Positions 8,896-41,267 of a stretch of 64,000 nucleotides of DNA are shown piece by piece. Each line of letters starts with the position of its first letter. The first letter of the stretch is position 1. A model generated the notes under the pieces. That model was not told where the DNA came from, ran no database searches, and was given only the letters and a program-made list of their open reading frames with translations. The DNA lies in contig NC_085846.1 of assembly GCF_035594765.1 (NCBI RefSeq), forward strand, positions 20,323,190-20,387,189, read 5' to 3'. The DNA comes from Anolis carolinensis. Lineage: Eukaryota. A program made the translations under genes and the position numbers.

Positions 8896-9263
8896 TTGCC
8901 AGGCTCTTTGGCTACTTTTGGACATATCAGAATTCGTAAGCAGCTCTATCCAGCCATCTTTCTTAGCATTAATTTGTGGCTTGCTGCTATAGTTTCATCA
9001 CTGTATATATTCTATATATTTTAATAATTAAAATCCATATGTACACGGTGTTCAGCTAGGGACAATGGAGAGGGGAAAAGCCCTCATAGGGAGAGGTGAG
9101 GAGAGAAAAGAGCACATGAGCACAAGGAAGGGAGGCAACTGTCACTCCTCAGTGCTCTTTTAACATTACAAGCTATACAAAATATATAAAAATGTCTTTT
9201 TGTTCTTCAGGTGAATGGATCATAGAATCCTGAAAACATTGAAAGCCCCACTTTTATTTTCAT

Positions 9264-14524: not shown

Positions 14525-14822
14525 TTACCCATGGACTCCCAACCAGGAGAGTTCAGAGTAAGTAGCAACAAGATGATGAAACACCCACTGAATATATAAA
14601 ATGCTAAATCAAAGGGTATCCTGCTCTCTGTGAGCATCAAAAGTCTGAAGGCAGGCGCAGGCTCTTAGCTCTCCAAGTACTACTTGTGTTCCTTTATGGT
14701 GAACTTATTTATCCCGAACCCTCAAAGATAGGGCATGTGAAGCAACATGAGGCAGAATAAGCATCTTCTAGTCACTCTGCCTGCACATATGGTCTTGATA
14801 TATTCATCTTGTTTCAGGGCTG

Positions 14823-15168
14823 ATGGCCTTGGAAGAAGGAGATGCCGATACCTTAAAACGCCGTGTAGTGGAACTACTGCTTCAGAACCCCCAAGGCATC
14901 AGGTTTGAGAATTTTTCTGGGGCCTTCCATCAGCTGCATGGTTACTACCCTCGTATTGCTCTTCAGGGATATCATAAGCTCAAGGAATTATTGGCTGATA
15001 TGAAGAATGCTGTGGTTGTGGAAAGGCGTTCACGGCAACAAGTTATGAAGATTGCAGAGGGCTTCTGCCTTGACCTTTCGTTGGAAGGAGAAAAAGGGAA
15101 TGGATTGGAAACATCCGAAAGAGAAGTGGAGAACCTGCGAGATGAAGACCAAGTTGGAGGAAAAACAA
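14823..15168 (+). CDS. LOTUS gene coding exon 1, LOTUS-like domain 1
   Basis: DTLKRRVVELLLQNPQGIRFENFSGAFHQLHGYYPRIALQGYHKLKELLADMKNAVVV; donor ACAA|GTAAAT, phase 1. Confidence 0.8.
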
Positions 15169-18100
15169 GTAAATGCAGCCAAATTTGGATCCTGGCAGCC
15201 CAATTTAGTTGGAATGATATTGTATGTGATTTTCAGATGGCGCATCTACAGCATAGAACTAGTACAGTTTGACACCTCTTTAATTGCCATGACTGGCCGC
15301 AGTGGTGCAGTGGGTTAAACTCTTGTGCCAGTTTGACGGCTGACCTGAAGGTTGGGTTGCTCACCTGAAGGTTGTTGATTCAAATCTGCAAGACGGAGTG
15401 AGCTCCCGTCTGGCAGCTCTAGCTTGTGAGAACATGAGAGAGACCTCCCAGCCAGGGCATCCCTTGGGCAGTGTCTCTGTAGATGGCCAATTCTCTCACA
15501 CCAGTAGCGACTTACAGTATGTTCTCAAGTCACTTCTGACACGATTTAAAAAAATGTGTATGCATAAGGTTTTGGCATGGTATAATTCATAATTGTATGC
15601 AGATGGTTATCTTTGTTTTCAGAATAGGTGTCCTGATTGCCTAAATTACTGTCATCATAGTGTCTCTGGCCTGACAGAAGAAAGGAGAGGGCATGCGCCA
15701 GCATGGTAGTATAAGCAGCCACCATCTGGGTACATCTACACTGTAGAATTAATGCAGTGTAATACCACTTTAATTATTATGGCCCAATGCTATGCCTTCC
15801 TGGTATTTGTAACTTGCTGAGGAACTAGACTTTTTGTCAGCCAATGCTAAACACCTTATAAAACTGAAACTCACAGGATTCCATAACAAAGAGTTGTGAC
15901 AGTTAAAATGGTGTCAAACTGCATTGATTTGAGAGTAAAAATGCATCCCAAAAAGGAACTTTTGGATATTGTGTGTGGATTAATTGATGAGAGAGAGATA
16001 TCAGCAAGGGCTCCAGCAAGGATCCACTACTGTGCCACTCTGCACTTTAATTTGTTACTTCAGATAGGAAGTTTTATCCGCAGGTTCTACTGCATTTTAG
16101 GAAATATTATAATTTTATAATTCTTACAATGTTATGTGCCTTGTTATTTTTATATTGATGTCACTGTGTATATACTTATGTATTGTTGTTTATATGTGGC
16201 ACTTGGAGAACTTCTGTGAGTCACCCCCAGTCCCTTCAGGGAAATGGAGGCGGGCTATAAATAAAAATATATTGATTGTTATTACTATATAGAATGTCTG
16301 CAGACACTCCAGTTGGGATCTAAGTTAGGGAAGAATTCATTCATTATTGGCTAAGCTCCTGGGGGTGCCCATGTCCATATGACAAACAATAATAACAAGT
16401 GGAATATTGAGTTGAGATCCACGTTTGTAGGCATTTTGATTTATGACTTGTTCTTTTTGTAGCTCTTGCAGACATCTTGGATTGGCTCATCAGCCTCCTA
16501 ATGGAGTACAAATCGGGACTGAGAATTAGCTACATCAAGAAATTCATGCTATCCAAGCATGCAGTGAACATGGAAAAGTTCAGCATTGCCCAAGGCTACA
16601 AGAACATCATGGAATTCTTGGAACATGAACTGCCAAAGCTAATAGTCAGATATCGAGAGAAACCCCGTGAATATGTTGTACAGATTCCTGAAGGTACAAA
16701 TAATACTGGATTATGTGGAGGGGAGGAATTAGTGCAGTGTCGCGATTAGAGTTTTGGACGAGGACTCCAGGAGTTCAGGGTTTGAATCCCCATTCAGCCA
16801 TAGAAAAGTCTAGGTCAGTGGTTCTCAACCTGTGGGTCCCCAGTTGTTTTGGCCTTCAGCTCCCAAAAATCCTAACAGCAGGTAAACTGGCTGGGATTTC
16901 TGGGAGTTGTAGGCCAAAACACCTGGGGACCCACCGGTTGAGATCCACTGATCTAGCTGATCTCCCTCTGAGGTTCCAAGGAAGAGAATGGCAGACTTCT
17001 GGATAAGTCTTGCCAAGAAACCCTATGATAGGTTCACCACAATTCAGAATCAACCTGAACGACAACATTTGTGGAGGGGAGGGGTTGGTTACAGTTTTCA
17101 AAGAGCATTTAGATTATAAATTTAAAAAGTTGTTAATAAACAATGCCATATGGATAGTTTCAACTCAGGGATGCTATGAAAACTGGATCATCTTTGTAAT
17201 CTAAGCCTACCAAGCCTTGCCAAAAGTTTTATTGTTGACACACCTTGAGAAAATGGTTTGTTCCTTATGACCAGGACACAAAGTGTTGTTGCAAATCTCC
17301 ACTAAATCGCAGAGAGCTTGAGTCAACATTTTATCAATTGCTACAGAATCAGTCAAATTCATGGATTGGCCACTTTAATATTTCTGTTAACTATCTTCAT
17401 AATGTTTATGAAGAGTGAAAATATTTTATTAAGGAGTCAACAGATACTATGAATCAAATAAGGTTTCATTGTGTTCTGTGGAAGCAGGCAGGTCTGTTTC
17501 ACATTATGTAACTGTTTGTAATTTTTGTCAGATCTCCTTGACTCAGATCTGTCTCTGGACTCAGATTTCTCTACATCGAGCTCACAATCTTCAACCCAGG
17601 ATCTAACAAGAACAAACTCTGGTAAGATTGTCTTGGATTCTGGGTCACATAGTAACTACCATATGTCCTGCAGTTGACCCATTCAGGACATGATATTTCT
17701 GGGAGGGCTTGAGGTTTTAAATCTCACAGTGAGGTCAGAGTTACATTGGATATCTCTTTTGACGTAAGGCATTAGAAGTAAGCAGTTTTAGAACTGATCA
17801 TCAGTGTCCAAACTGAATCAGAACTAAACTTCCAGAATGCCCTGGCTGGGACTGCCACTGATCGTGCTGGCAGAAGGTTCTGGGAATGGTAGTCCAAACA
17901 CTAATCATAAGTGTTTTTCAAGGCTTTTATGGCCGGAATCACTGGGTTGCTGTGAGTTTTTCGGGCTGACAGGCATCCTCGGAGATGTGAGGTCTGTTGG
18001 AAACTAGGAAAATGGGATTTATGTATCTGTAAAGAGCCCAGGTTGAAAGAAAGAACTCTTGTCTGTTTGAGGCATGTGAAAATGTTGCAGTTGATCACCT

Positions 18101-21100
18101 TGATTAGCATTTAATGGCCTTGAAGCTTCAAAGCCTGGCTGTGTCTTGCCTGAGGTAATACTTTGTTGGGAGGTGTTAGTTGGCCCTGATCATTTCATGT
18201 TGGGAATTCTCCTGGAGTGTCCGGAGTTCCCCTGTTTTCAGAATAATTTGAACACAGCATATTATTAGAGAACACAGAATTGCTGGACCACTCTTAACAA
18301 CCATCATGTCAGACTACACAGAGAAACCACTGAAATCCACAAGCATTTAGTCAATTTCAACAGAAAGGAGGAAACCATGAAAATGAACAAAATCTGGCTA
18401 CCAGTATGTTTTAAAAACCTCTAAAATCAGAACAGTAAATAAAGAACAACACTCTGAAAACTGGAATTCCAGACATGAAACAATCAGGGCCAGCTAACAC
18501 CTCCCAACAAAGGATTCCCTCAGGCAAGAAGTAGCCAGGCTTTGAATCTACAAGGCCATTAAATGCTAATCAGGGTGTTTAATTGCAACATTCACACTTG
18601 CCTCAAACAGAGAAGAGTTCTTTCTCCCAACTTGGACTTCCCACAGATATATTAACCCCACTTGCCTAGTTTCCAACAGACTTATACACCTCTGAGGATG
18701 CCTGCCATAGATGTGGGTGAAATGTAAGGAGAGAATGCTTCTGAACATGGCCATACAGTCCAGAAAACTCACAGCAACCCACTAATCATAAGCCTCACTT
18801 CTTGTGCATTCTATGTACCTCTGTGACTGCTTCCCCATTTCCAGTTACGTTCAAATACAACTTGTTCAGTCTGAGTTCTAAAAATAAGGTTAGTTACAAC
18901 TTATATAGGATTCTTTTTTCTTTCTTTCTTACAGCTAGCTCTTTGTATTGCACCTGCAAAATTGACCCAAACCATGTGAAGCAACCTACAAAATATGTCC
19001 CAGGTGAAACTGTGTGATGCTCTGAGTTGTGCTGTTGTGGTTTGTGTATGTGATGGAGCAGGAGTTATTAGTGTTTTTTTTTTCAGATAAAACTTTAACA
19101 TGAGACTATAAGCATGTTTTGAATTTTGCATTATTATTGAAGGTGTATCCATCATTGGTTTCATTATATATAGCCAAGCTTTTTTACCCACCCACTTCCC
19201 TCATAATTTTGAGTGTACTTTTTTCTTGATGGATACTATAGATGTGAGTCTTGAAGTTCAGTGCTTTTTCTTACAGATCTGCCGGCTGCTTCAAAGCTAA
19301 TTCGGGATGTGCTCAAGAGATTCCCTCGTGGTATGAAAGTACGTTTGCTAAAAAGAGTCCTCAGAAAGAGACGCAGATTTCACTTGGAGGCATTCTGCAC
19401 ACAGCACGGATACCAAGATGTGTTGTCCTGCTTGAAGGATATCCCTGAGCTGCTTCTCCTAAATACAAATAGGCCTCAGAATTGTGTCGTCCGCCTTCAG
19501 CCATGTAGGGCAAATACTGTCATATTGTTACTGTGTCCCCCATTCCCTTTCCCAAGCTTTGTTGTGACCATGGTCAAGGCTGTATAGACTTTATCTTCCT
19601 GGTTAGCAGAGAAGCACGAATAACTTCAGTGATATTTTGCCATCAGTAGGTGGGATTTTGGCACTTGATGTGGTAATCCACAATCCCATATGGGTGGTTT
19701 TTCTTACAGTATTTCCTTTCTTTACCCTTAACTCAGAGGTAGCATGCAAACTGTATATACTTATAATCTGTCTACCAAAACTTGTCAGAGGTGTTGTTAT
19801 TGAAATAATTTGTTTCTTATGATTAGGATACATAGTGTTGCTCTGCAAATATCAAGTAGTTTCCTGAGATTGTGAGTGACCATCTTATTGATTGCTACGC
19901 AGCAAATGGAAAGCCACAGTATTATTTTGCGAGGATTGGCCACCTTAATATTGGCACTCCCCCTCTATAGCACTCTCTCTTAAGTACTCTATTGAATATA
20001 TATGTTATGCAGACATTTTCCAGCTTCTAGCTTTTATGTTTTCTGTGTTGTTTTGAAATACATCTTTTTTTCATTGTTTCAGCTGTTTCATAATGTATTG
20101 TCGAAAGCTTTCATAGCTGGAATCATTGTGTTACTGTTCGTTTTTCAGGCTGTATGGCCATGTTCGAGCATCATTCTCTCCTAATGTTTTGCCTGCATCT
20201 GTGGCTGGCATCTTCAGAAGTCTGTTGGAAGTGAGGCAAGTGGAGTGTATATATCTCTATGGAATGTCCAGGGTGCGAGAAATAACCTTTGTCTGTTTAA
20301 AGCAAGTGTGAATGTTGCAGTTAGCAAGCATGATTAGCATTGAGTAGCTGTGAACGTCCAAGTCAGTAAAAGAGGGTATCTGCATAGCGCTAGTCTGAAC
20401 TTTGTTGTCTGAAGGCATCCTCTGCTTGGAAGGTGTTAACTGACACTTGATTGTTTGCTGTCTGGAGTTCCCCTGTTTTAGAGTGGTGTTCTTTATTTAC
20501 TGTCTTGATTCTGATGTTTTTTTTAAAAAATACTTGTAACTATGAAAACGAACAAAATCTGGTTACCAGAATTAAAAATACCAGAATCAAGACAGTAAAT
20601 AAAGAACATCGCTCAGAAACAAAGGAACTCCAGACAGCAAACAATCAAGTGCTAGTTAGCATCTCCTAAACAAAGGATGCCTCCAGGCAGCAACAGTCAG
20701 GCTAGCTCCATGCAAATACCCTCAGTCATTGACTTTGCAGCTGCAAGACTACTCAGTGCTAATCAAGCTTGCTAATTGCGACATTCACACTTTCTTCAAA
20801 CAGACAAGGGTTCTTCCTTCCACCCTGGATATTCCACAGATATATATAAACTCTATTTTTCTCACTTCCAACAGACTTCTGAAGATGCTGGCCACAGATG
20901 CAGGTGACTATAGAGCCCGAAAAACTCACAGCAACCCACTGTTTCATAATGATTATGATGTAAGCCACTGAAGAGATTTCATTAAGGAGTCAATGAAATC
21001 TATGATTCTATGATTCAACAGATTATATAAAGCCAGTTATAAGGCCTCCTGAAAAACATTTCAGTGTGCCCTGTGTAAGCAGTAAGTTGTGTTTCATACA

Positions 21101-24100
21101 AAGTAATTTCATATTTTTATTAGGTCACTTTGGCTCTGATCTGTCTTTGGACTCGGATTTCTCTGGATGCAGCTCTCATTCTGAACCCCATGGTCTAACA
21201 AGAATGAATTCTGGTAAGATTGCCTTTGATGTTCTGAGTCACATAGTAACTATGTCCTTCAGTTGACCCATTCAGTGCATGCTACATCTCGGAGGTTTTG
21301 AGGTATTACATCACATGATGCATGCAAAGTTACACTGGGTTGCTTTTCCCAAGTAGTCAATGAGAATTGTGATTGAACTTTTGAGAGAATATTGGCTCCA
21401 ATCTGCCTTTCTTCTCCTCCTACAAAGTTTCTACCAGAAGACGTATCAAGAGAAGGGTACCAGATGAAGTTTCTGCCAGTGGTTTGCTTTAAACCAGTGG
21501 TTCCCAACCTCTGGGCCTCTAGGTGTTTTGGACCTCAACTCCCAAGAAATCCCAGCCAGTTTACCAGCTGTTAAGAACTGTAGGAGCTGAAGTCCAAAAT
21601 ACCAAAGGTTAGCTACTACTGCTTTAGACTGTGCAAGCTTCAGTAGAATAAATAAAGGCCACTTCATTATCTGTCAAATAACACCGATTACTCTTAAATG
21701 CTATTAGAGGAAATAATGCAGAAAGGCACAATGCACTAGCCCATAATTTGTTGTGTATGTGATGAGAACTACCAGCTCCTATGGTCAAGGCTTTTTCTGC
21801 CACATATGGAGCAGGAGGCTCAAATCAAGATAGGTGACATGGATGCAAATAGATTCCTCTGGTATCGATGGGGTTCTTGTTCAGTGGAGAATGAGCTATC
21901 TCTTTCAGTGGGGTCTAACAATAAAGAAGAATGATGACATGTCCTGCAGTTACAATGGGAGATGAACTATGGCTGATATTTTCTGAGAACTAATATCTTG
22001 TTTGCTACAACATAAAATCTCTCCACTGATGGAGAGTGAACATACCTATCATAGCTTTGGGGATGCCAAGCCACTTTCCTCTATAAGTACATCTTCCAAG
22101 ACTCACCACAGCAATGGTCAGAAGAGCATCAAAATTTTTTATGACTTGCCACCTTTCTTCAGAAGGAAGAAAGAGCTTTGATGGAAAAGGGGAATTTGAG
22201 TTCCCCCTTATGTTTTGGGCTTCTGGAAGAGATTGTCCAAAAGAGTAATCTAATCATAAGCCACATGTCCTATGTAGCTCTGAATAAGAGTGTACATTTC
22301 ACTCATTATGTTCAGATCCTTTCATTCTCCACTAGAAAATTCTCGCTAATTCTCACACATTTATGTCTGCTTCTCCATTTCTAGTTAGATTCAAGTGTAA
22401 TTGAATTATTTTGAAAATAAGACTGGTGGCTGGTTTTTGCAGGAATCCTCTTTTATTTCTTACAGCTGTCTCTCTACCTTCTACCAGTGTGAGTGTGCTG
22501 AACCATGTGAAGGAACCTACAAACCAGGCCCTAGGTATAGCAGTGTGATGTTCTCATTTATGCTGTTACGGTTTGTGAACTGGATGGGAATTGTTAGTTG
22601 TGTTTAATATTTGTTTTAGAAAACTCCCAGTATGAGACTATAGCCATGCTTCAAATTTTGCAGTATTTTTGTCAAACCTGTATTGCCTGAAGTGCATCTA
22701 TCAAATAAGAATCTAAATGTATTGATACATTGTGTCTGTACTCTGATAGTCATTCGACAATAAGTCTTGCGTTCATCTATTTACATAGATGCTTACATCT
22801 CATCCAAACGTACCCTCTTGGGTATTTACAAATATTTAATTGTAGTTTATATTATCATTGATTTTAAGTATTAATTTCAAAAATATAATGTATTTATATT
22901 TAATTATATATATTATAACGGTGTTCCATGCAGTCATGCCGGCCACATAACCTTGGAGGTGTCTACAAACAACCTCTAAACTCTTTGGCTTAGAAATGGA
23001 AATGAGCACCAACCTCTAGAGTTGGACACAACTAGACTTAATGTCAGGGGAAAACCTTTACTTTAACCTAATTATATATTTATAGTATAATTTTATAATT
23101 CAATGCATCCCTTGTGTATTGCAACAGATGTACTACCAGTAAATGTGTCTGTCTGGCAGACGATCTTAACTGGGGCTCATTTTGGGCATAGGGCTTATTT
23201 TTGGGGAAATTGCATCAAATACCAGCTGCCCAAAACTCAATGGTAAATTGCCTCATTTAGCCACTCAGCCAAATGTCATACAAACTCCCAACATTTTAAC
23301 CTCACGTTCCTTGTCCAACAGACCACTTATTGTATAGTCTACTATACATTCCTAAACCTTTAATTGGAGTTATGGAACCTAACATTTTTTTAAATTTTAT
23401 GTAACCTCATAATATACTATAAGCATTTAAATCATTGCAATTACACAATGTTTTTAAAAATGAAATTGCATGAAGTGGTATCTATCATATTAAAGATTTT
23501 AAAATATGAGGTTCTTCACTTTTGTTACCTATGAACTGAACTATTGTGGCCATATCTGGGTTGGTTTGGTGCACAGGATTATCTTTGATTGCGTTTCTGA
23601 AATTTACATCTATGTGTTTTCTCCCCCGCTCTGGTAGCATTACCAGAAGTTTTGTCTTTAGTCAATAACCTGCTCACCAAGTACAAAGACGGTCTGAGAA
23701 TTAAGAAAATTCAAGATTTCCTGATGGCTACAAACAGCATTGACCTTGAGAAATTCAGTATCATGCAAGGCTACAAAGGCTCAGTGGAATTTTTGCAGCG
23801 TCAAATGCCTTATTTATCCTACAAGAAACGAAACCAAGGACTCCACAGTATTGTTAAACTGGGTAATGTTCAGATTGTCAACTGCTGGGTTCAGTTGTGT
23901 TGATAGACAGGCTATAAAAGAGAATGAATTTCAGTTTAGATTTTAAATGTCTACCAGAGATAAAACCAATCAAGACACATCAGCCAGTGTCTTCCAGCTT
24001 TTTTCTTGCTAGAACTGAAGGTGTCATTATAACCTGCTCTGGGTCCCCCTGGGGGAGAAGAGTGGTATATAAATAAAATAAACTAAATAAATAAACAAAC

Positions 24101-27100
24101 CCAAGATCTTTGTTTTAAAAGGCAATTATGTTTTGCTCCATCACCCTGCTACTACTGTAATTCCTGTCTGTCTAAAACACAAGTTCAGAATTGGCATAAG
24201 GGAGAGCCTGGTTTTGTTTTTGTTCTTTGTTGTGAATTGTGGCTTATTTTGGAGCAACATGCCAGAAAGCCCAGTTGACAACAAGCTGAAGAAAAGAAAT
24301 CTGGTTGTCCATGAAAAGAATGGTTGGACTATATGGTTAAATATGAATCTCTTCCAATTCTAATTCACCCTGGCTCATTTCTATTCACAAATACTGTTTA
24401 TTTCATTTACATAGGGTTTTATATATTTGATATACAGTTGGCTTTCCACATCCATGGGTTTTACATGGATATATGGATCCTAGACACAACCCTATTGGAT
24501 ATTATCAAGGGTCTGCAGTGTTTTTAACTGGTTTGCAATGGGCAAAATTCTATTTGGATGACGTTACATGTGAGTGAACCAAACTTGAAATGATTACTCA
24601 AGTTTCAGAATCAATAATGACTTTTCTTTTGGTCTAACTCAGGTATAAAGGCAAAAAAGAAGCAGTCTCAAAAACATCCTCAAACTGGAACAACCAAAAA
24701 GAGTAAGTTAGAAATGACTGGTACAATAGAGTTTGTTCTATCATGATTTTTGAATCCCTTCTAATGTTGGTGGAATTTCCATCTAAGTCTTAGGACAGCA
24801 TTCTGTTTGGTAACTACTCTCATCCATTTCTTTATTCTTCCTGCAACATCTGTCTTCAGTTTCTTTCCTCACAGTCTCACTTCATAGATTTTTCTGGGTC
24901 AGTCCAATTTTTCTCTACAGCATGCATGGACAATATAGGCTCTGCCCCTCCATGCTGTTAGATTACATTTTCCATAATCCTCCATCATTGACCGAGCTAA
25001 AACCACTTAGAGTTGGAGACCACCCGCATTTGGAAGACAATGTGTTCCCCACTCTCGTTCTATGCTTATCCTTGACTGTATTGACTGATTCTCTCTCCAT
25101 GTTTACCCTGTCAACCTTCCTCAGTTTCCATCAGGTTTGTTTAGCATCCTTATAAATGCACAGATATTTCCACTGTTGACTGTTTTGTATAATTAGATCT
25201 GCCAAATGTTGGTCCCAGCTAATTGGACTTTTTCTGTTTCTTGTTAGATCCTTCTGTTGCTTCTGTTCCCCCTTTGGTGAATGCCCCTGAGCCACAGTCA
25301 GCAAAACCACTGGAGCCAGTTCATTCAGAATCAGGTAAATACCCTTCTTGTTGTTAGACAACAAAGTAAAGTGATAGATAAGACAAATGACACCTTTTGC
25401 GTTGGTTTGTAAAGATTCACTAGTTAACATAGCTGGTAAATCAGCCAGGGGCTATTCTTGCTAGCAAGGGGGCATTGTGGTTACTATTAATTCTTATGAA
25501 AATCTTCAAAAAAGATCATGCAGATGCAAAGTTGTCATGTTCTAAGTCAGGACAGGAGAACCCTTGGCTGTTCAGACCTATCAGCTCCAACTGGGAGTTG
25601 CTCTTCACAGTTTCTGATCAGATTCATTCTTAGACCTGTCTACAGATCCCTCATTATTATTGTTACACTGATCAAAACTGATGTAGATGAGGGTGGTCTG
25701 ATACCATAACCAGGGAAGCCACATCCTCAAGATGTTATTCAGATAGTTTTATTGTACAAGCCAAGGCACAAAATGCACAGAATACTACCCTCAGAGCTAA
25801 CAGGAAACAAAAGACACCAAACAAAGGCTATCAAAGGCCAAACAGTTCCAGCCCAGCTTACCTGTATGAACTTATCTCCCCCTATGAACCTCCTCGGAGA
25901 TTATGATCGCCTGGGGAGGCCCTGCTATTGGTCCTGCCTGTTTCACAAGAGTGACTGGCAGGCATAATAGACAGGGCCTTCTCAGTGGTGGTCCCTCAGC
26001 TGTGGAACTCCCTCTCTAACAAGATTAGATCAGCCCCCTCCCTCCTAGCCTTCAAAAGGAAAGTAAAAACCTGGCTCTGGGATCAGGCTTTTGGAAAATA
26101 GTGCAGTGCAGTAATATATTTGGAATATGTGTAATGACTACGGAATGGCCTTAGATTATCATTTCTGGGTGGCATGATTTTAGCCCACGAGAACCTTAAG
26201 ATGGGGAAAGTGTCTGAAATAAGCTCTGCCTATATGATTTCACCAATTTTTCCTTGTGTTCTTAATTTATCTAATATATTGTGTTCTGTGTTGTGAATTT
26301 GCATTTGCTAGATATCTAGACTGTAATAGAGAATCATCTATTTATGTGGCAAAAACAATCTCGTAGATTGGATTGCTTCATTTTTTTTCACTGTCTCTTA
26401 ACTTGGGGAATTTGGTCAGAAGATGGACTGCTATCACATTTTCCAATACGTAAATGTCTCAAGCAGCTGACTTTGCAGTAATGGTGTGCACTTTCCCTAG
26501 GCTTTGGAAGTGTCTCTAAGTCTTCCGTTACACCCAATGATTTTTCTGCAAGCAAATCTCAGTCCCAGAGCCTGCCTTTACAAGCTCCTTCCATACCACA
26601 GGAAGTCAAGAACATGATCCATTCCAGCATGCGTATCCCACTTCCATCCTTTCATGAGGTCCATAGTACTTCACCAGCCAAGCCTAACAATTCCAGCCAG
26701 TCTATTTCCAACAGTCCACCCCAGAAGCCAAATGTATGCCAGTTTGGTGGATCACCACCCATGGAAGAAGTCCTTTGTCAGTTGGATAGGCAACTGTCTA
26801 GCAAATCCAAAATGACTGAAGACGAACCTTCAAAGGACCAGGATGATTTGAAGCAGCAAGTAGCCCACATCCTGGCCTTGCATCCAGAAGGCATGTCACT
26901 TTTCCAGTTTCGTGCAGCCTATAGTGCCACCTATCAGCAGCACTTCCCAATGGACAACGCTGCTTCTGTCAAACAACGTTTGCAGGAAATGCCAGATGTT
27001 GTTTGTATGAAAAGCTATGGAGTCCAAACAAGGCTGCTATCTGTATCTTGTGCAATGCCATCTTTAAAATCTGGTAGGTAAGGTGGTATATAGTCTTTTG

Positions 27101-29814
27101 TTCTGTGTATATCTCGGATTGTTTTTCTACTTTTCAAAAGAACCAACATATTCCTCATGAACAGGGAAAAGTAAAACCAGTAGAGAACCTAAAGCAAGGA
27201 AAACTTCTATTCTCCTCACCTAATTTTTATCTTACTAGTTACATCTATATTTCAGTAAGAAAACCAATAGCCATGTGATCCACATTTTTTAAAGGACATA
27301 GTTAGATAATATACTCAATGTTACAGAAGTAGTGTCAATGTGACATAACCCGAGTGTGAGAGGTACTACTCAGTGAGGTGATCCATTGGAGACTTAGTCT
27401 GTGAACGCTTATTCTACCAACTTCTCTCAATTGGTTTCCAAGGTGCTACAAGATCCCTTTCTATATTGATAACTAACACTGCTATGTCTTTGAATTCTGT
27501 ACAGCTTCTTTCAGTGTTGTACTTCTTCTAGTATCAAAAACATTTCCAGTTCTCTGTTGTCTGAGCCTAATTTTCTGACTTTGCAGGTCAGCCTGTCTCT
27601 GCCACAATGGAAAAAACTTCAGTTGTCCCTGGTCTCTCACAGCCCAGAACAGTGTCACTGACTCAAGAGGTAACTCTTCTCAAGCTTTCTCCCCCTCCCT
27701 TAGGCTCCTGTGGCATCCCCTATCCCATTTAACTCCCAGCTTCAGACCATTCCCAAGAAGCCAAAAAACAAGAATGATGGTGTTCTCCTCAAAGTACAGC
27801 CACCAAGAACACACACACACACACACAACACCCTGCAAATCTTTTGCAGGAGCACAAGAGAACTAGAGTTAAATGGGTGGATCTTTCGGGTCAACTTGAT
27901 TAATCTAAAATTAAGGAAGTGACTCATTTCTGGCAGTGCTCTGCTTAAAGCTGACCCTATGATAGCTTCCAAATCTTGCCTTAAGCCTATGCTTCCCAAG
28001 GCGTCTGTGCTTCGCATACTTCAGTTCTCGTTCTCTCTCTCTCTCTCTCTTTTCTCTAGAGTTTTGAAGAACTTGGAGGAGATGACAGCAAGGAGGATTA
28101 CCCAGTCCTTGATTCTTTGCTCCACCAAGTAGTTAAACCAAGAGCTCATGTGCAAGAGAATGTGAAGAAGAAGCCCAAGTCAATGGGAGCTCTTGTCATT
28201 CCTCAGCCCCCTGTAGTTTGTCATACATATGCTCAAGTCACAGCTTCGCATAAACCTTTGAAACCAAATAGTCTTCATATGAAGCCCACACATCTGAATA
28301 GCCCTTATATTTCTGCCAGTAGTGCCTCAGTGCCTTCATATCCAAATGATCCTTGTATTTCTGCCAGTAGTGCCTCAGTGTCTTCGCATCCAAATGATCC
28401 TTTTATTTCTGCCAGTAGTGCCTCGGTGCCTTCACATCCAAATGATCCTTGTATTTCTGCCAACAGTGCCTCGGTGCCTTCACATCCAAATGATCCTTGT
28501 ATTTCTGCCAACAGTGCCTCAGTGCCTTCACATCCAAATGATTCTCGTATTTCTGCCAACAGTGCCAACAGTGCCTCAGTGCCTTCACATCCAAATGATC
28601 CTTATATTTCTGCCAGTAGTACCTCAGTGCCTTCATATCCAAATGATCCTTGGATTTCTGCCAACAGTGCTTCGGTGCCTTCCACCTCTCATCCTGCCTC
28701 TTACAATTCTGGAACATGGGCGCAGCCGGTGAGCTATCCATTTGTGCCGTTGGTTTCCCAGATGCCAGAGATTTTCCCTGTCATGCCTGCCTATATCAAA
28801 GTTTCTAGATATCCTTCTGGGATCCAGTTTAAGAACCCTACAGTTCAGAGCTCTCCTTTTGCTCAGCCACCCCATGTGCTCCCAATTAGATATGATCCAA
28901 CAATGCATCTGACCCAAAGCATAGAACAATGGAGCAACATTCGTACTCTCCCACAAGTGGATGCCTATTCTCCAGTGAAGACATCATCCAACATTCTGCA
29001 GCTTGCCCAAAGCCCTACATCCTCAACAAGGAGATATCCCATATCTCCATCTTCTAGAAACATCTCCCAGACTGTCCAGCATTTAGAATCTTCTAAACAT
29101 ACCCAGCAGGTTGGTCTGCAGCATGGTTCAGTTGTGGTAACAATGAATAAAAGCTTTGTAGTAACATCTCTGGACACACAGCCTAAGCCTCCAGCATCTG
29201 CTTATCAGAGACAATATGTTGATTGGAATCCTCTGGCATCTACTACAAACACAGCACAGTTCATTTCACTTGGTGCTTGCTCCACTAGTCAGCCCTTTCA
29301 GCCCTTGGAAATTTCCTCTAATAGCAAAAAGAATCCTAATGCTCTGCTTTTTGAACCTCCAGTTTTCGTGGATCAGCCACAACCTGTTAGTGCAAGTGCC
29401 ACCATAACCACCTCATCGTATTCACCACCTTCACTTGTAGATGCTAATGTAAGCCCATATTCCAACCACTTAACTCCCTCCAGTAATTGCAATGATTCTG
29501 CTAGTCAACCTTTAAAGCCTTGGGCTTCCATTCAACAACAACATACTAGCCTGGATGTCTCTGTAATCAATTCCAGCAGAAAACAAGCAGGTTCATTGCC
29601 TTGCCCTCAAGACCTCACTATCAGACCATCCCGCCAACTCTCCATAACACCTTTAAGTGTTTGTACAGATAATGAGCCTCCTATCCAAGCTAAGCCTGTG
29701 GTTTCTTTTTCTAAACATGCTGACGATCATCATGTTTCTTTGCCAATAAACCAGACATCTTATTCTCCCCCAAATAGCCCTCTAAAAAAACTGGATAGTT
29801 GTGTTATCTTGTAA
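14823..29814 (+). CDS. Uncharacterised multi-LOTUS (OST-HTH) domain protein with C-terminal CaaX, about 1301 aa. Predicted coding exons: 14823-15168, 16463-16693, 17532-17621, 18935-19003, 19277-19504, 21124-21213, 22466-22534, 23638-23862, 24643-24702, 25248-25334, 26501-27073, 27587-27669, 28060-29814
   Basis: All introns are GT-AG with pyrimidine-rich acceptors. Phases agree (1 throughout, 0 for the last intron) and the total is 3906 nt with no in-frame stop. Five segments fit the LOTUS pattern (helix, ll..p.G+.+..+, then usually G[YF]..+.e+l..+p). An acceptor at 14817 just before the ATG implies an upstream non-coding exon. Confidence 0.8.
16463..16693 (+). CDS. LOTUS gene coding exon 2, LOTUS-like domain 2
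   Basis: LADILDWLISLLMEYKSGLRISYIKKFMLSKHAVNMEKFSIAQGYKNIMEFLEHELPKL; acceptor tttttgtag, donor GAAG|GTACAA. Confidence 0.75.
16816..16950. mobile_element. Small hAT-type MITE inside a MIR-like SINE; similar element at 21495-21621
   Basis: TIR CAGTGGTTC; near-perfect 8-bp TSD (ctttaaac/ctttagac at the 21495 copy). Confidence 0.75.
17912..18780. mobile_element. Inverted Penelope insertion in a LOTUS gene intron
   Basis: 12-bp TSD ACTAATCATAAG (17900-17911, 18781-18792); minus arm then plus arm. Confidence 0.88.
19277..19504 (+). CDS. LOTUS gene coding exon 5, LOTUS-like domain 3 (strongly basic)
   Basis: LPAASKLIRDVLKRFPRGMKVRLLKRVLRKRRRFHLEAFCTQHGYQDVLSCLKDIPEL; acceptor ttcttacag, donor CCAT|GTAGGG. 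Confidence 0.78.
20096..20938. mobile_element. Inverted Penelope insertion (different subfamily) in a LOTUS gene intron
   Basis: 13-bp TSD CTGTTTCATAATG (20083-20095, 20939-20951). Confidence 0.85.
23638..23862 (+). CDS. LOTUS gene coding exon 8, LOTUS-like domain 4 (paralogous to exon 2)
   Basis: LPEVLSLVNNLLTKYKDGLRIKKIQDFLMATNSIDLEKFSIMQGYKGSVEFLQRQMPYL; shares YK.GLRI and EKFSI.QGYK...EFL with exon 2. Confidence 0.75.
25845..26170 (+). mobile_element. L2-like LINE 3' fragment (others at ~46860-47385 + and ~31850-32135 -)
   Basis: RAFSVV.P.LWNS.P-type terminal coding motif. Confidence 0.65.
26501..27073 (+). CDS. LOTUS gene coding exon 11, Ser/Pro linker plus LOTUS-like domain 5
   Basis: DDLKQQVAHILALHPEGMSLFQFRAAYSATYQQHFPMDNAASVKQRLQEMPDVVCM; acceptor ctttccctag, donor TCTG|GTAGGT. 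Confidence 0.78.
28060..29814 (+). CDS. LOTUS gene terminal exon, Ser/Pro-rich low-complexity tail ending in CaaX (CVIL)
   Basis: Long open frame after a (CT)n acceptor; phase 0 matches the upstream donor GAG|GTAACT at 27669; ends KKLDSCVIL*. Confidence 0.8.
   Translation, partial: SFEELGGDDSKEDYPVLDSLLHQVVKPRAHVQENVKKKPKSMGALVIPQPPVVCHTYAQVTASHKPLKPNSLHMKPTHLNSPYISASSASVPSYPNDPCISASSASVSSHPNDPFISASSASVPSHPNDPCISANSASVPSHPNDPCISANSASVPSHPNDSRISANSANSASVPSHPNDPYISASSTSVPSYPNDPWISANSASVPSTSHPASYNSGTWAQPVSYPFVPLVSQMPEIFPVMPAYIKVSRYPSGIQFKNPTVQSSPFAQPPHVLPIRYDPTMHLTQSIEQWSNIRTLPQVDAYSPVKTSSNILQLAQSPTSSTRRYPISPSSRNISQTVQHLESSKHTQQVGLQHGSVVVTMNKSFVVTSLDTQPKPPASAYQRQYVDWNPLASTTNTAQFISLGACSTSQPFQPLEISSNSKKNPNALLFEPPVFVDQPQPVSASATITTSSYSPPSLVDANVSPYSNHLTPSSNCNDSASQPLKPWASIQQQHTSLDVSVINSSRKQAGSLPCPQDLTIRPSRQLSITPLSVCTDNEPPIQAKPVVSFSKHADDHHVSLPINQTSYSPPNSPLKKLDSCVIL
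28303..28683 (+). repeat. Coding minisatellite, 48-nt (16-aa) unit, about 7.75 copies: P[YCFW]ISA[SN]SASVPS[HY]PND
   Basis: Unit ccttatatttctgccagtagtgcctcagtgccttcatatccaaatgat; one unit has an extra 9 nt (SAN); frame preserved. Confidence 0.95.
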
Positions 29815-30005
29815 TAACAAACATTGAGGAGGTAGGCATTTTCTGGGATGATGCTGGTAGCAGTGATGGATGAGTGCATTCAGAATTCTAAGATGGTTCC
29901 ATCCCATCCAACGGCACTGTTGGCTTCTGTAACTTCTAATTGTTATATCACATTTATTATTCTAATTTTTTTTACTAACTACAGATACATTTGTATGTGG
30001 TGCAA

Positions 30006-30011
30006 AATAAA
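30006..30011 (+). terminator. Candidate polyadenylation signal of the LOTUS gene
   Basis: AATAAA about 190 nt after the stop, followed by a T-rich downstream tract. Confidence 0.6.
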
Positions 30012-31804
30012 TTATAACAAATGACTGGTCTTTTATCGCTTTGCTTTCAATTTTTCTTTCTGTTACATCTTTCTCCATTTTATGAAAATTATTTGGTGGT
30101 CAAGCACATTCTTGTTTCATATTTCCTTCACCTGATTTCCATCCATTGGTGGAAACTGAAGTAGCCCAAGACTTCAGGGCAGTCGGGATAGTGGGACTGG
30201 GTCTGATTTGGGCCAAGACATTATCCAGATGGACATTGCTGCCACCACCTTTTCTTTGCACTTCTCATGCCCATGTCCCTGCCATCCTTGTTGGTCATGT
30301 GAATGTTCCATTCTAACATCAACAGTGGTGCCTTTGATGTCCAGGAGCTTTCATGAAATTCTATGACAGCTAGGAGCAGTGCTGGAAGTAACATAGAGGA
30401 GGTGACAGCCCAGCAATTCTCTGGTTGATCCCCTAAGGGCAGATTAGGCAAATCTATCCAATATTGATGTGCCTTTAGAGGACAAATTAGTTAGGAATCA
30501 AGAAAAAAAATCCATTCTGCCTTGAAAAACAATAGGGAGATGGCAGGAATCATCTGGATCTACCCAAGTGCAGTGATGGCCAGTACTATCTGAAGCATGT
30601 TCAACTTCAGTATTAACAGTATGGCAGGACCAGGCACAAGTTGAAAATAATGAATCTTTAAGGATGTGTGCAATCTGCCCTTTTAATTCGGGGTGTTATT
30701 CTTATTTGCTTCATGGTTTTAGATAGTCATAATGTCAGGGAATCACCTTTTAAGTTTGTGCCTTGAGAGTGAAGATGATGGCCAGGGTTCCTCCAGCTGT
30801 TTCCGAAGCCAGATTACTATCAGAATCTTTGTCTGTGTATCTAGATAGATGATCCTTTTTGTAAACAAAATAAGCTCAGGATGTTTGTTCATTTAATTAT
30901 ACCGTGTTTTAAGTATGCCTCTGAATTTTGCATATACTTAGTTCCTGTTCATTCTTACAGATAATACACTACGATGTGTAGTTTGTTTCCACCCATTTTA
31001 GCCTAAATTAATATGCTCAAAATGTGAACTGAGAAATTACTTGTCTTTCAGTTTTGTTTGGATTCACATTAAAGGTGTGCAACAGAATATGGAAACAGAT
31101 TTAGGAATTTCCTTATAAATAAAAACAAGACATTGCAAAAAGAAGTAAACTGTATGCAAGAATTCATTATTTCCTTGCTATGTCCTTGTCAACTAATGTA
31201 GTCTTTCTAAAGCAAATTTTGTTCTGAAATTGTGCACTGATTTGATTATATTGTATTATTAAATATGTCAGTTGCAATGGCTCTGACTTTGTGACTTCCA
31301 TATTTGGTATCCAGCTCTGTCATTATACATATATGTAGTGTTCTTTTTCCTGTTGAATTATGCCAGCAATGTCTGAATTTTAGCTACTAGCCTTCCCCCA
31401 ATTGAATGCAATGTGCATTTTGCAATATAAACATTCTCCATTCAATATTCTCAATCTCTACATTGTAATTGTGACACTACAGTATTTTACTAAATACTTA
31501 GCTGACACCTATGCTGTGCTAAGTAGCTACCGCTAGTCTAGACCATGTCACAGAAAAATTGTTGACTGTCCTTTAAACATCCAAGGAAAATTAATCGAGG
31601 CAATAAAACAAAATGTTCACATGTCAATATTTTAATACTTTATTCTCATTTTCTACAACTTATACAAATTCATGCTCTGTCAAAACAAAAAGCTTTCCCA
31701 CATTTAGGTCTAGAAGCAAAAGTGAAATATGTAGACTTTTGTCCTCTTAGTCCCAGTCGGAGGAAATGAATAAGTGAATGGTGAGTCAATCAACAGATAG
31801 ACAG

Positions 31805-32318: not shown

Positions 32319-35300
32319 TTAATGTCTCTTCTCGGTCAGCAATTTCTTTGAATTCATGTCAGCTCTTATAATAATAATATAACATTTGGGGAAAAAGATG
32401 AGAGCCAAGAGACCAGTATTGGAGGCCAAGATGGCAAAAACCTCCACAGCAACTATGTATTTCCCCATGGTGCTCATGTAACTTGGAATAAAAAGGATCC
32501 AAACACTGCAAAAAACCAGCATGCTGAAGGTGATCAGCTTGGATTCATTGAAAGTGTCAGGCAATTTTCTGGCTAAAAAAGCCACAGTGAAGCTAATGAT
32601 GGCTAGGAGCCCCATGTAGCCTAGAAAGCAATAAAACATGATGAGAGACCCTTCATTGCAATGAATGACAATTTTCCCCGATTCTGAGTGCATGTCTGCA
32701 TTTGGGAACGGAGGAGAGGTTGAGAGCCATGCTGCACAGATACACACTTGAATGAGGGAGCAGGAAATCACAATAGTAGTGGCCACTTTTTGCCCTAGCC
32801 ATTTCCTCACCCTATTGCCTGGTTGTGTGGCTAGGAAAGCCAGGACCACAATGATGGTTTTTGCCAACACACAAGAAACCGCAACTGTGAAAATGATGCC
32901 AAATGTCATTTGCTGAAGAAGGCAAGTGACCTTGCCTGGCTTGCCTATGAAGAGGATGGCGGAAAGGTAGCAGAGGAGGATGGAGATGAGCAGAACGCAG
33001 GTGAGGCTCCTGTTGTTGGCTTTGACTATGGGAGTATTCCAACTCTTCAGAAAGGTTTGTACCACTAAGCATGTAATCACACTAAGGAAAATACTCAGGA
33101 AGACCAAGATAATTCCTAAGGGCTCTTGAAAAGATAGGAAAACTATAACCTTTGGGATACATTGATGTCTATTTTTGTTTGAATATTGATCTTCAGGGCA
33201 TTTGACACATTCATTTGCATCTGAAACATATCAAGCACTAACATTATTTCTGATCATTCATATTCTGATCATAGCTTTATGACAAAAAGCAAAAGAGGTT
33301 TAAAATGACTAGTATTTCATGTATGCATAAACACAATTTTTAGCATTTGAGTGCCCCTATTACCTTCCTTATGACCCTATTAGTTCAAATTTGGATGGGA
33401 ACAATTGTGGGTAATTTTGTCAGGTCCAAGAAAACTTTTTGCTCTTCAAACTTCAGTAATCCATGCAGACTCCATGATGTCTCTTTCTAAGTATTTGAAA
33501 TAGATTTGTTAATAGAATGTGACTAATTTGTCTTGGAACACCACTTTTAAAACTGAGTGGAGAGGCATGCTGATTTCACACTAAAAAATCTTGTTTTGCA
33601 GAACACAAGGTTCCCTCCCCTTTTCATAAATGGCATCTGTGAAGCCCACTTCACAAAGGTTCTTTCACCCAGGGAGGAAAATCTTTTCTTTTATATCCCT
33701 CCGCTGCCACCAATAAAACTGTGAAGCCCACTTCACAAAGGTTCTCTCAGACAGGGGGGGAAATCTTTTCCTTTATATCCCTCCGCTATCGCCGATTTAA
33801 ATCTGGGACGCACCCCTGTTCTGAAGGGGCAAAGATGTAAAAGATGTAAAAATCCTCCTCTTAATCCAAAGTCAAAAGCAGGAGGCCCCTTTTCTGTGGA
33901 GAGGGCGAGGAAAGACACCACAAAAGTTGGATCTTCAAACTGCAAAAGAACTATTTATTGCGTGGCCATAGCAATGTGACAAATACATGCATACATGCAA
34001 TCAAAGGATTTGTCTGAATTTCCAAAATGGTTGCAAGGGTTTTATCACCTCCACAGAAATTAGTAAGCATATCCTTATTGGTTTACAAAGATCATTTACC
34101 CCGTTTGTCTAATGGCTTAAGCATCTTAATTAAAGTCTGCAGGGATCTTCTTGGACTCTTTAAATTTTATTCAGTGCTTTGGAGAAACAGCCTTCATACA
34201 GAACGAAACAGTAACTGAGTTTATTTATTGATATCTTGAAACAAAAGCGTGGTGGTTACATTTGTACATTGCTTTCTTTGTCTAATAACATTATTTCATT
34301 ACAGTTTTCCTTCATACAAATCTTTATACACAGAAAGATTTGCTTATTCACTATGTAGGAGCAGACTCTCAACTATTTTCAACTTACTATACGGTCTATT
34401 TCTTCAAATACTTTTTATTAGCATACTCCCTGACCTATATTCACTGACAACTTAACTATCATGACCTAACAGTTCGCATCTCCCCGTCCTAACTGACTTT
34501 TTCTCTTCCTAACTGACTTTAGAATGTTCAGTTTTTTTCTTCCAACTGTCATCCTGGGCTACCTTCTCTTTTAAATCCTGGCACCCGCTCATTTACATAT
34601 GACCAATCATGTCGCCTTTATGCAAATTGGCTCCTTTCCTGCTGCTACCTTCTAAGAATCACAAAATGGCTGTTCACACACCAGCCCTGCAAGGCAGGCC
34701 ATGTTTCAACATTAACAAACATACTTGAAATTTACACTATAATTAAACATGTCGCTATAGCATCTAATTAACTATGCTAAATAATGACTAAGATCACTAT
34801 GAATGCATTGCAAATAGAACAAACTCACTGTGACCCCATCTACAGTGTGATATAATGTAGTTTGGAACTGTATATATGGTTAGTATAAACTCATATAATG
34901 CAGTTTAAGTATGTCTTCTACTTTTCAGAATATGATCAGGCGTAATGTGGGCTGGGCAACCATCAACTCTTTTCCAACACTAGCTGATCTTTGGCAGATG
35001 TTTAATGGGAGGGAATAACAGTGATTTCTCTTACTGGTTAGGGCAGAAAAAGTGATCCTTTGGCCTGCTGGCATAACCTAGTTAGCAGCCCTATTTTATC
35101 TAGGCTTCAGGAGCCTTGGGCATTTCCATCCTGCTTCTCAAAGCCTTGCAGCTAGTGAGATTTACATATTTTGCAGCTATTCCGGAAAATTACACAGAGA
35201 AATAAATACAAATGAATTTGGTGAGGTCTCTTTTACATATGGCATTGCCTCTTGTACCAACTTTGCCATCTTTCAATGGATTAAGATTTTGCCTCCATAA

Positions 35301-38300
35301 TCCATGGTTTCATCACTTCTAAACTGGACCACAATAATGCATTCCACTTAGTTATTCCACTTCAATATCAAAACACATACACACATGCAAATGCAATGAC
35401 AATTTGAATGAAGTCTTTTGTTGGCACAGACACGTACCTGTCTGGTTAGAAATCATGTCTTTTGGGCATTGGATGCAATCATAGCAACAGAATGGTTTCC
35501 CCTCCTGAACTGCCTTGCTGTATCCACGCTCGCAACTCTTGATACACATGGAATGAGGTGGTAGCTATTTTTAAAGAAAATATATAGCATTCACATTTTG
35601 ATTCCAATCAGGAAAGTTATATATGTGAAAGCTATAAATGTACACCAAACATCTACTAGAAAATAAAATGCTTGGAGAGATATCACTGATAGTAGAGTCC
35701 TCTATAGGTTTATCTAAACCTTACTGAATTAAATAACACTGAATCTCAAGAACATTAAATTATTGATCCTGCAGCCTGAGTTTCATTACTCCATGCTTTG
35801 ATCTATGAATATAAGTGACCCATGTTTGTTGTACAAATGAGGAGGATATTAGATCGTAATCCCAGTTTATTGCATCTCTAGCCCTGAAAACACCCAGGAA
35901 GGAAGAGAAAGGTTGATTCTCACATTACCACTTTCTTCTTTCTTAACTCTCCATCTGGATCTACACTGCCATATAATCCAGTTCCTGAATCCAGATTATC
36001 TGCTTTGAATTGGATTGTATCAGTCTACATTGCTATATAATCGAGTTTAAGCAGATAATCTGCTGGAAATTGGTTTATATGGCAGTGTAGATGGGATCTC
36101 CATCTCTTTCTTGCCTCATTGTCAGTATGAGGGCAACACAACCTTAGGAAAGAGCTCATTGCATGAATAAGAAAACCTAGAGCTTTCCCAAAGGAATATA
36201 CCGTGAGCATGGACTTACGGTTAACGTGGAGATCCAAGCCACGTGCATATGCATTTTTTTTAAAAAAAAATTTGAAGTTACTGAAGATTCAAAACATTTG
36301 CCAAATTTTTTATTTAATTTCAGATCTCTTTCTATGTTTCTTCCAACTTTTTCATGAGTTATGATCCCAGGAATAAAGGTACCTTATGGTGTTTGTAAAG
36401 CAAAATATCTGAAGAGTGCTTAGATGCAAATTTATCACAGTGGCTATTTTTACTTCTCTGTTTTATATATTTTTTTCAACTAGGACTATCGTAGATACTC
36501 AAACATTGTTGATCAGTTATGACAAAAAACCCCAAATATCTATTTTTCTAGTAAGATTTCACTTTATCCGTTCATTCATTCTTACCTTTTCAAATTTACT
36601 GTTCCATTGAATACCATCCTCTCTGATACTAAAGCCTTGAAGTGGAGAAATTTTCCCAACTTTGTTTTTAATGAAGGATTTATTTGGGAAAATCATCCAG
36701 TTGATGATGTCGTACCCTTCTGCTGACAATTTCCCATTCTCAAAGAGAACCTCGTGCCCAGCGCCATTATTAAAGTGAATGTTTCTAAGGATGGCATGGA
36801 GCTAAATTTAGAGGGAATACCAGAGTGTTATAAAATGAAGTCCAGTTTCTAAGTGTGGTCACTGTGTTTATGCAAAATATAATTTGGCAGGGGCTCATGT
36901 ATTCTCAGTACTGACAGCTGCCCTAAGCGTGCAGAAGTCATGTGGCTTGGCTGTACTTAGTGGTTGGGCATCCCTTCCTACTTCCCAAATGGTTTAAACA
37001 TCTGTAGCTTCTGAGGAGAAAAATAGTGGTGAAAGGGGATAATTCTGGGTGGAGGCTAAGTGGAACTACTATAGTTCTATCTCCCAATTCTGAGCTAAGG
37101 CAGATCAGTGATGAATTAGGGAAACAGTTACTGCCTATGAGTTAGGATAGTGGTGCCATTGCCGTACAAGTTAAGGAGGAGGAAAAATGTGAAATAGGTG
37201 ATACATAGTTGTTCCTTCACATTTGCTGGAGTTAAGGGAGCAGGGCTCCTGTGAAAGGGGAAATAATATGAATTAAAAACCACTACAGTAGAGTCTCACT
37301 TATCCAACACTCGCTTATCCAACGTTCTGGATTATCCAACGCCTTTTTGTAGTCAATGTTTTCAATACATCGTGATATTTTGGTGCTAATTTGGTAAATA
37401 CAGTAATTACTACATAACGTTACTGCATATTGAACTACTTTTTCTGTCAAATTTGTTGTAAAACATGATGTTTTGGTGCTTAATTTGTAAAATCATAACC
37501 TAATTTGATGTTTAATAGACTTTTCCTTAATCCCTCCTTATTATCCAAGATATTCACTAATCCAACGTTTTGCCGGCCCGTTTACATAAGATAAACGAGA
37601 CTCTACTGTATGTTTTTACCTGATGGAATACCTCTCTAAGGATCTCTAGGACCTCCAGCATTTTTAGGGTTAAAAGCAAAGTAACAACATTTCAACCTGT
37701 GTGTTGTGATCGTGAAGGAAATACTTAACATATACGTATGCAGGATTTTATTTAAAATAAGCTTCCAGTGCTGCTAATTTCAAAATTAATATATAAACTC
37801 AGAACTGTGATGACTTTACCTTCCATGGTTGAACCTTCAGATTCATCAGTGTGTACCTATTCAGCATTGCTCTCTTCTTTGCCAACTGTAAAGCGTGTGC
37901 TATAGTATATACAGCATTGTAGATACTATAGCTCTCCCCTGTAAGGTCTTTTTCCAGAATATATCCAGGGAGCCTTTCCAGATTTTCTTCACCTGTACAT
38001 GTTTTACAGTCTATACAGTATTGGTAGTATTCATTAGGTATACGGCAATGGAATGCATCTTGCCAGAAGACAGAAAGAAAAGTCATCAGTGATTTTTCCG
38101 GTTTCATGGTCTGGATAAAATCCTGGAATGCCGGCACTTCTTTGGTATGGACAAAGAAAGAAAAGGCACCGTGGAAGGTTTTTGTAGGATATCCGTTGCT
38201 ACTAGCTGTATTGGAAAAATCCCATTGTGGTGGCATGATCCATACTTTTCCTATATGGGCTTTTCTCCTAAATTCATTAATTTCTAAGATTATTGTTAAA

Positions 38301-39064: not shown

Positions 39065-39110
<46 letters not shown>

Positions 39111-41221: not shown

Positions 41222-41267
<46 letters not shown>

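Follow-up and report, generated by a model that had tools for sequence, protein, structure and literature searches.

Does a protein with LOTUS domains end in a lipid-attachment signal and, if so, what might the lipid be for? The question is raised by a 64,000-nucleotide stretch of the Anolis carolinensis genome (assembly GCF_035594765.1, contig NC_085846.1, positions 20,323,190 to 20,387,189 of the forward strand; hereafter the window), in which an open frame ends in the residues KKLDS-CVIL. The first-pass annotation of this DNA had read these residues as a geranylgeranylation signal on a putative RNA-granule protein. The end is exactly as described there. On the + strand, positions 29785-29799 read AAA AAA CTG GAT AGT (KKLDS) and positions 29800-29811 read TGT GTT ATC TTG (CVIL), followed by a TAA stop at 29812-29814 and immediately by a second TAA. 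CVIL closes a 584-codon open frame in an exon that starts at the AG acceptor at 28060. Thirteen exons, each bounded by GT-AG, join into a single open frame of 1301 amino acids from the ATG at 14823; an in-frame stop inside exon 12 presents no obstacle, the donor at 27670 being used upstream from it. The NCBI model for the gene, LOC103279778, agrees with it in length, start and end, and over residues 1-700 the two are 100% identical. The last nine residues of a paralogue, LOC103279780, are identical to those of LOC103279778, and the relative in A. sagrei terminates in KKPDRCVIL. Given the agreement between the two gene models and the likeness of the paralogue and A. sagrei ends, the CVIL motif closes a genuine gene.

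A CaaL end (a CaaX box with leucine as X) arises by accident in a single gene about once in 1000: five of the 5291 stop-ended segments in the six frames of the window close with C[VILMFA][VILMF]L, the anole motif included. Conservation was therefore the decisive criterion. Relatives were gathered with exon 11, residues 1-700 and a profile of the last LOTUS domain as queries, and 58 named genera were counted with one model each, the longest model containing the last domain being aimed at. Emydura is an exception, as its shorter paralogue (ending CVLL) was counted and a longer model ending CLGT was not. Left out of the count were unnamed records, extra isoforms, further species or paralogues within a genus, and Tiliqua, represented by a model that is missing the final LOTUS domain and has no such motif at its end. 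A cysteine stands fourth from the end in 45 of the 58 genera: 23 of 24 squamates, 15 of 17 turtles, the alligator, the lungfish and the coelacanth (1/1 each), three of six sharks and rays, and one of six amphibians (Discoglossus, CNIL); the one teleost and the one bird are without it (0/1 each). Among the 45 Cys-ending genera the last residue is Leu in 44 and Ile in one; only I, L or F occur at a2, with a1 varying among V, I, L, R, N, A, S and G; Asp occupies position -6 in 32. The same four-residue pattern occurs once among the 59,154 internal positions of these 45 relatives. The comparison led us to reject a chance motif. The genera share kinship and the 45 cases are thus not independent events; the weight lies with the six separate lineages that keep the motif. 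Second paralogues in Alligator and Macrochelys have models that end without it.

The sequence leading up to this end behaves very differently. The anole tail (614 amino acids, 18.6% Ser and 13.2% Pro) aligns with lizards and snakes only, and a BLASTP search gave no alignment to 13 of 23 tails, namely one gecko and all 12 non-squamates, in proteins whose last LOTUS domain (LOTUS5) is still 33-66% identical. Tail length among the relatives varies from 182 to 1038 residues. The first-pass annotation had proposed, as a check on its reading, that orthologues should keep the CaaX box while the tail diverges, and this is the pattern observed.

The anole protein is very probably prenylated on its terminal cysteine. 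The CaaX box (29800..29814 with its stop) makes Cys1298 a predicted geranylgeranylation site, on the grounds of conservation and of published reporter results. The rule reported for geranylgeranyltransferase type I (GGTase-I) is that a2 be non-polar and the final residue hydrophobic (PMC11304957), and the variation seen in the family (a1 loose, a2 restricted to I, L or F, X being L) fits that specificity, which supports the assignment as a GGTase-I substrate. On a yeast reporter protein, human GGTase-I geranylgeranylated the ends CVIL, CIIL and CVLL to completion (PMC11152559), and these three account for 29 of the 45 family ends.

The two lysines of KKLDS (29785..29799), which had also been counted as part of the signal, do not share in this conservation. 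Alignment of the C-termini reveals no conserved polybasic patch: the 20 residues before the cysteine hold anywhere from 1 to 7 Lys or Arg among 23 Cys-ending rows, and almost never a Cys, with a basic run in Emydura and lungfish only. In the anole, this segment includes two Lys and one Asp, and no Cys. Plasma-membrane CaaX proteins need a second signal, either a polybasic stretch or a palmitoylated cysteine upstream from the box, and neither was found within the 20 residues upstream from the anole cysteine. Since the family lacks both a conserved basic cluster and a further cysteine close by, the second-signal rule suggests, by analogy, that membranes of the endoplasmic reticulum (ER), Golgi or endosomes are a more likely destination than the plasma membrane. 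OAS1 p46, which ends in CTIL, is geranylgeranylated and directed to the Golgi (PMC8357416). A literature search, with most subscription papers and supplements outside its reach, returned no prenylated LOTUS protein and no mention of the family itself, in agreement with the first-pass remark that none was known.

That the protein belongs among the LOTUS proteins, as initially proposed, was borne out by Pfam, profile and structural-model matches. The whole protein matches Pfam OST-HTH (PF12872) with an E value of 7.2e-10, above the family cut-off. There are five LOTUS domains, one per exon, all on the + strand. Exon 1 (14818..15168, ATG at 14823) encodes LOTUS1, of the N-type (Pfam OST-HTH, E 3.4e-5). 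Exons 2 (16463..16693), 5 (19277..19504) and 8 (23638..23862) encode the middle-type LOTUS2, LOTUS3 (net charge +11) and LOTUS4, the last similar to LOTUS2. Exon 11 (26501..27073) encodes a linker and the C-type LOTUS5, with a G-x-G-V-Q motif. In profile searches LOTUS5 matched TDRD7 (2ly1, E 2.3e-9) and TDRD5 (3s93, E 6.6e-5), as well as Oskar chains. The LOTUS1 model superimposes on TDRD7 3rco_B (Z 12.6, root-mean-square deviation (rmsd) 1.9, 77 residues aligned), TDRD5 3s93_B (Z 11.9, rmsd 3.0, 79 aligned) and the mouse MARF1 LOTUS domain 5yad_A (Z 8.4, rmsd 3.6, 72 aligned). A single-sequence search with LOTUS1 against solved structures gave no match, whereas the profile and fold searches did. 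Taken together, the models confirm the winged helix-turn-helix LOTUS fold in LOTUS1 and LOTUS5.

The intervening exons encode linkers. That of exon 3 (17532..17621) is acidic and Ser-rich, exon 4 (18935..19003) encodes a second one, exons 6 (21124..21213) and 7 (22466..22534) are similar to exons 3 and 4, respectively, and the linkers of exons 9 (24643..24702) and 10 (25248..25334) are Lys-rich and Pro-rich. The pairwise likeness of phase-1 exons (3/6, 4/7 and 2/8), and a number of LOTUS domains that lies between 1 and 12 in individual models of the relatives, are consistent with growth of the array through duplication of exons or exon blocks. The tail begins in exon 12 (27587..27669). Exon 13 (28060..29814), the last coding exon, contributes 584 residues rich in Ser, Pro, Thr and Gln; a Pfam scan of this part yielded no match at the family cut-off. 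Within it lies a 48-nucleotide (16-residue) tandem repeat of 7.7 copies (28303..28682), which is present in A. sagrei and nearly missing from the A. carolinensis paralogue.

Relatives of the same layout were found in squamates, turtles, alligator, amphibians, lungfish, coelacanth, a teleost, and sharks and rays; in birds, a single divergent model was found. The usual layout, based on 35 models from sharks to lizards, consists of one N-type domain, zero to nine middle-type domains, one C-type domain, the tail and CaaL. Lungfish, salamanders and the teleost depart from it by repeating the N- or C-type domain, and several turtle models lack the N-type. The C-type domain, LOTUS5 in the anole, is the best conserved of the family. 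In a tree of this last domain, sauropsids (99/99) and squamates (95/91) come out as groups, in keeping with descent from a single ancestral gene; support is weaker elsewhere, with 14 of 32 inner branches open. Paralogue pairs occur in Anolis, Alligator, Emydura and Macrochelys, and middle domains are 65-83% identical between the two Anolis species. No Tudor, NYN or RRM domain was detected by Pfam in 19 family proteins (three scanned at E up to 1, 16 at E up to 0.01), and identity with TDRD5, TDRD7 or MARF1 was rejected on this basis. For want of a Tudor match, the database label "Tudor domain-containing protein 5" on a Varanus model was likewise rejected. Other database names in the family (mucin-like, NACA-like, SRCAP-like) derive from the low-complexity tails, and the remaining members are called "uncharacterized". 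Protein-atlas searches returned generic OST-HTH clusters only. The family is also matched by Pfam DUF7515, which may be related to C. elegans MIP-1/MIP-2.

From its sequence, the group looks like a fourth vertebrate LOTUS family. Mammals are reported to have only three LOTUS genes, TDRD5, TDRD7 and MARF1 (Ding et al. 2020, PMC7498356). Our word-limited searches for relatives named no mammalian member, and they missed TDRD5 and TDRD7 as well; the loss of the family in mammals, which appears likely, therefore leans on the published count. In an older alligator model, a GSG1/claudin-like protein is joined to LOTUS repeats of the family. The fusion probably arose in annotation, from two adjacent genes, and could help to trace the mammalian locus by synteny.

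What might such a protein do? We lean, if only slightly, toward a geranylgeranylated scaffold that would hold RNA or messenger ribonucleoproteins (mRNPs) at internal membranes by means of a LOTUS array on a flexible stalk. GGTase-I would attach a C20 lipid to Cys1298, as the motif suggests. Prenylation of this kind is followed by trimming of the last three residues (here VIL) and then by methylation. The lipid would place the protein at the ER, Golgi or endosomes, and the tail, about 180 to 1040 residues long in different species, would act as a flexible spacer, judging from its composition and lack of conservation. At the far end, the LOTUS repeats, presumed to be of the minimal type, would bind G-rich or G-quadruplex RNA multivalently; both mLOTUS and eLOTUS domains are reported to bind G-quadruplex RNA (PMC7498356). 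The repeats may also recruit mRNA-silencing factors in the manner of MARF1 LOTUS domains, which in Drosophila recruit CCR4-NOT (PMC6168497). The outcome would be a non-enzymatic scaffold keeping mRNPs on a membrane, most plausibly, by analogy, in germ cells. A more far-reaching version is possible, although we consider it doubtful: that a fourth vertebrate LOTUS family, already present in the jawed-vertebrate ancestor and seemingly lost from mammals, would provide the first RNA-granule scaffold with a lipid anchor, in which a geranylgeranyl group on a long disordered stalk would fix the LOTUS array, together with G-rich RNAs or germ-granule material, to germ-cell endomembranes in sharks, lobe-finned fishes and reptiles.

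Several observations weigh against the scaffold. In humans, MARF1 associates with DCP1:DCP2 rather than with deadenylases (PMC6294520), so that the silencing partner of the anole protein is not readable by homology. RNA binding by LOTUS domains is itself disputed, with none observed for the Oskar eLOTUS (PMC5458760). LOTUS5, the most conserved domain, has a net charge of -1 as compared to +3 to +11 for LOTUS1-4, a property that suggests protein binding rather than RNA binding. Human farnesyltransferase also fully modified the same CaaL sequences on the reporter (PMC11152559), which is why the type of lipid, geranylgeranyl or farnesyl, is not certain. Finally, the motif is missing from the models of 13 of the 58 genera: three salamanders, a sawshark, two frogs, the teleost, two rays, the bird, two turtles and a gecko. 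Several of these models may be truncated. Those of Spea and Scleropages stop four residues past the last domain, that of Narcine 10 and that of Mobula 49; the Gekko model is marked partial, and the Chrysemys model ends inside a repeat. The three salamanders have tails of 122-284 residues without the motif, and the sawshark end is like other shark ends except for an Arg in place of the Cys. Salamanders and sawshark may thus represent true losses, in which case the anchor is possibly dispensable. The axolotl end (SDKLVF) and the sawshark end (GSRSLFS) look like degenerate forms of the motif. Provided that the models are correct, these long-tailed, Cys-less proteins provide natural cases of anchor loss.

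A related proposal, developed from the first-pass annotation, is that the LOTUS domains bind and activate the helicase Vasa (DDX4), with the lipid anchoring germ granules to the nuclear envelope, mitochondria or cortex. To bind Vasa, a LOTUS domain needs the alpha5 helix at its C-terminal side and, on alpha2, a residue of small size; the Oskar A162E change abolishes binding (PMC5458760). With position 162 mapped onto the anole domains through the profile and fold matches, the equivalent residues in LOTUS1-5 are E, S, D, N and H, large or charged in four of the five; across the family the residue is small in one of 29 N-type rows and A, G or C in five of 35 C-type rows. The nearest structural neighbors of LOTUS1, the first LOTUS domains of TDRD7 and TDRD5, speak for the proposal, as does a post-wing motif in this domain, F-x-L-x-x-W-L-x-G, modelled as a four-residue helix of low confidence whose end aligns with Oskar 228 (LOTUS1 model versus Oskar 5nt7_A: Z 8.2, rmsd 4.0, 79 aligned). 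However, this extension is found in squamates and perhaps amphibians and is not kept in sharks, coelacanth or Emydura. The LOTUS5 model has no helix after the wing, and two relatives' models stop four residues later. The sequences of LOTUS2-4 show no conserved extension, and this includes LOTUS2, the only anole domain with a small residue (Ser) at the critical position. Since alpha5 is disordered without Vasa (PMC5458760), a monomer model could miss it, and scaffolds made of LOTUS domains and disordered regions do anchor Vasa in worms (PMC8331183). On balance, the anole LOTUS domains appear to be of the minimal type, and the "LOTUS-bound helicase" of the first-pass annotation finds no counterpart in a conserved alpha5 or, in four of five domains, in a suitable alpha2 residue; we regard this version as distinctly unlikely.

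A somewhat less remote explanation, still an unlikely one, is that the protein is a prenylated RNA sensor in innate or transposon defence, similar to ZAP-L or OAS1 p46, the lipid bringing the array to membranes of virus replication or retroelement assembly. Such sensors exist and depend on their CaaX box (PMC8568172; PMC8357416), and the family has turned over rapidly, as judged from its variable domain number, its paralogue pairs, the modest identity of middle domains between congeners and the patchy loss of the motif. Reproductive proteins also change fast, and no enzyme or effector domain was found in the 19 scanned proteins. Moreover, animal LOTUS proteins are reported to be mainly germline proteins (PMC7498356). 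It is also conceivable, if improbable, that the prenylated cysteine serves protein binding or turnover, by occupying a carrier pocket or contacting a partner, and that the protein is mostly soluble. The lack of a conserved second membrane signal would fit this idea, but a C20 chain is usually sufficient for endomembrane binding. The OAS1 data point both ways: a CaaX box placed directly on the common core gave no Golgi targeting, whereas CTIL added to OAS1 p42 sufficed for Golgi localization (PMC8357416). It appears very improbable that the end escapes lipidation altogether and acts as a short peptide ligand, for instance for a class II PDZ domain. Ligands of that class end in hydrophobic-x-hydrophobic, a pattern that V-I-L ends fit, and one sawshark model has a similar end without Cys; yet the invariant residue is the Cys at -4, and the residue that a PDZ domain would fix (-3) varies to R, N, A, S and G.

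The locus exposes a LOTUS family outside TDRD5, TDRD7 and MARF1 that databases leave "uncharacterized" or mislabel. Its lipid-anchor signal has been kept since the split between sharks and bony vertebrates, over 400 million years ago, while the tail preceding it changed beyond alignment. The docking of RNA granules on membranes is still poorly understood, and a LOTUS scaffold whose anchor could be switched off by a single Cys-to-Ser change would make it directly testable. Membranes can lower the threshold for condensation (PMC8331183). Were the protein an antiviral sensor instead, the strategy of ZAP-L and OAS1 p46 would extend to a new RNA-binding fold.

Downstream from the stop codon, a probable 3' untranslated region (UTR) extends over 29815..31300 (+ strand), with AATAAA at 30006 and 31118 and ATTAAA at 31068 and 31258. 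The region was examined by comparing four of 24 listed sequencing runs over the intron-free interval 28700-31700, three of the runs being tentatively taken for RNA. Three small contig sets from three studies span the stop with no differing letters or joints. Their ends, at 31040, 31237 and 31300, lie close to polyadenylation hexamers and are spread over 260 bases; the fourth run, genome-sized, continues past these ends to 31700. This faintly suggests that the last exon is unspliced and carries a 3' UTR of 1.2-1.5 kilobases. A 217-base loose end at 29887, seen in three of the four runs, probably marks the point where the 3' region of the paralogue diverges from the LOC103279778 copy. Tail to tail with the LOTUS gene, exons of a family-3 G protein-coupled receptor (Pfam 7tm_3 and ANF_receptor; likely, from their sequence, a vomeronasal type-2 receptor) occupy 32319-41904 of the - strand, followed on the same strand by three olfactory-receptor open reading frames (Pfam 7tm_4; 42379-43395, 47923-48876 and 55412-56479). 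On the other side of the gene, a GC-rich stretch (7552-8400) with a 277-residue Pro-rich open frame adjoins a broken fragment (6763-7463) that we take to be reverse-transcriptase-like. Two similar copies of about 260 bases (6540-6810 and 9000-9265) each contain an exon-like piece.

Several known systems resemble the anole protein in part. With MARF1 (Limkain-b1) it shares a tandem array of LOTUS domains, apparently of the minimal type, and a match between its LOTUS1 model and 5yad_A. MARF1 also has a NYN nuclease and RRMs (PMC6294520), none of which were found in the anole family, where a long tail leads to a CaaL end. TDRD5 and TDRD7 (Tejas and Tapas) provide the nearest solved LOTUS folds and profile matches. 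The anole family differs from them in lacking a Tudor domain in the 19 proteins scanned, the small alpha2 residue that contacts Vasa and a conserved alpha5. The C. elegans pair MIP-1/MIP-2 (EGGD-1/2), like the anole protein, joins LOTUS domains to disordered regions, and the worm proteins act as scaffolds. They have two LOTUS domains, bind the Vasa homologue GLH-1 and are described, in the accessible text, without a lipid anchor (PMC8331183). Drosophila Long Oskar is a LOTUS protein on endocytic membranes that helps anchor germ granules; it is targeted by an N-terminal extension and has one eLOTUS and an OSK domain, with no CaaX box mentioned in the portions available (PMC12005264). ZAP-L and OAS1 p46 are RNA-binding proteins directed to endomembranes through a C-terminal CaaX box (PMC8568172; PMC8357416), but they have unrelated RNA-binding folds, antiviral roles and effector domains that are missing from the anole protein. 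A membrane-bound LOTUS protein thus has a precedent in Long Oskar; a lipid anchor on a LOTUS protein did not turn up in the literature search.

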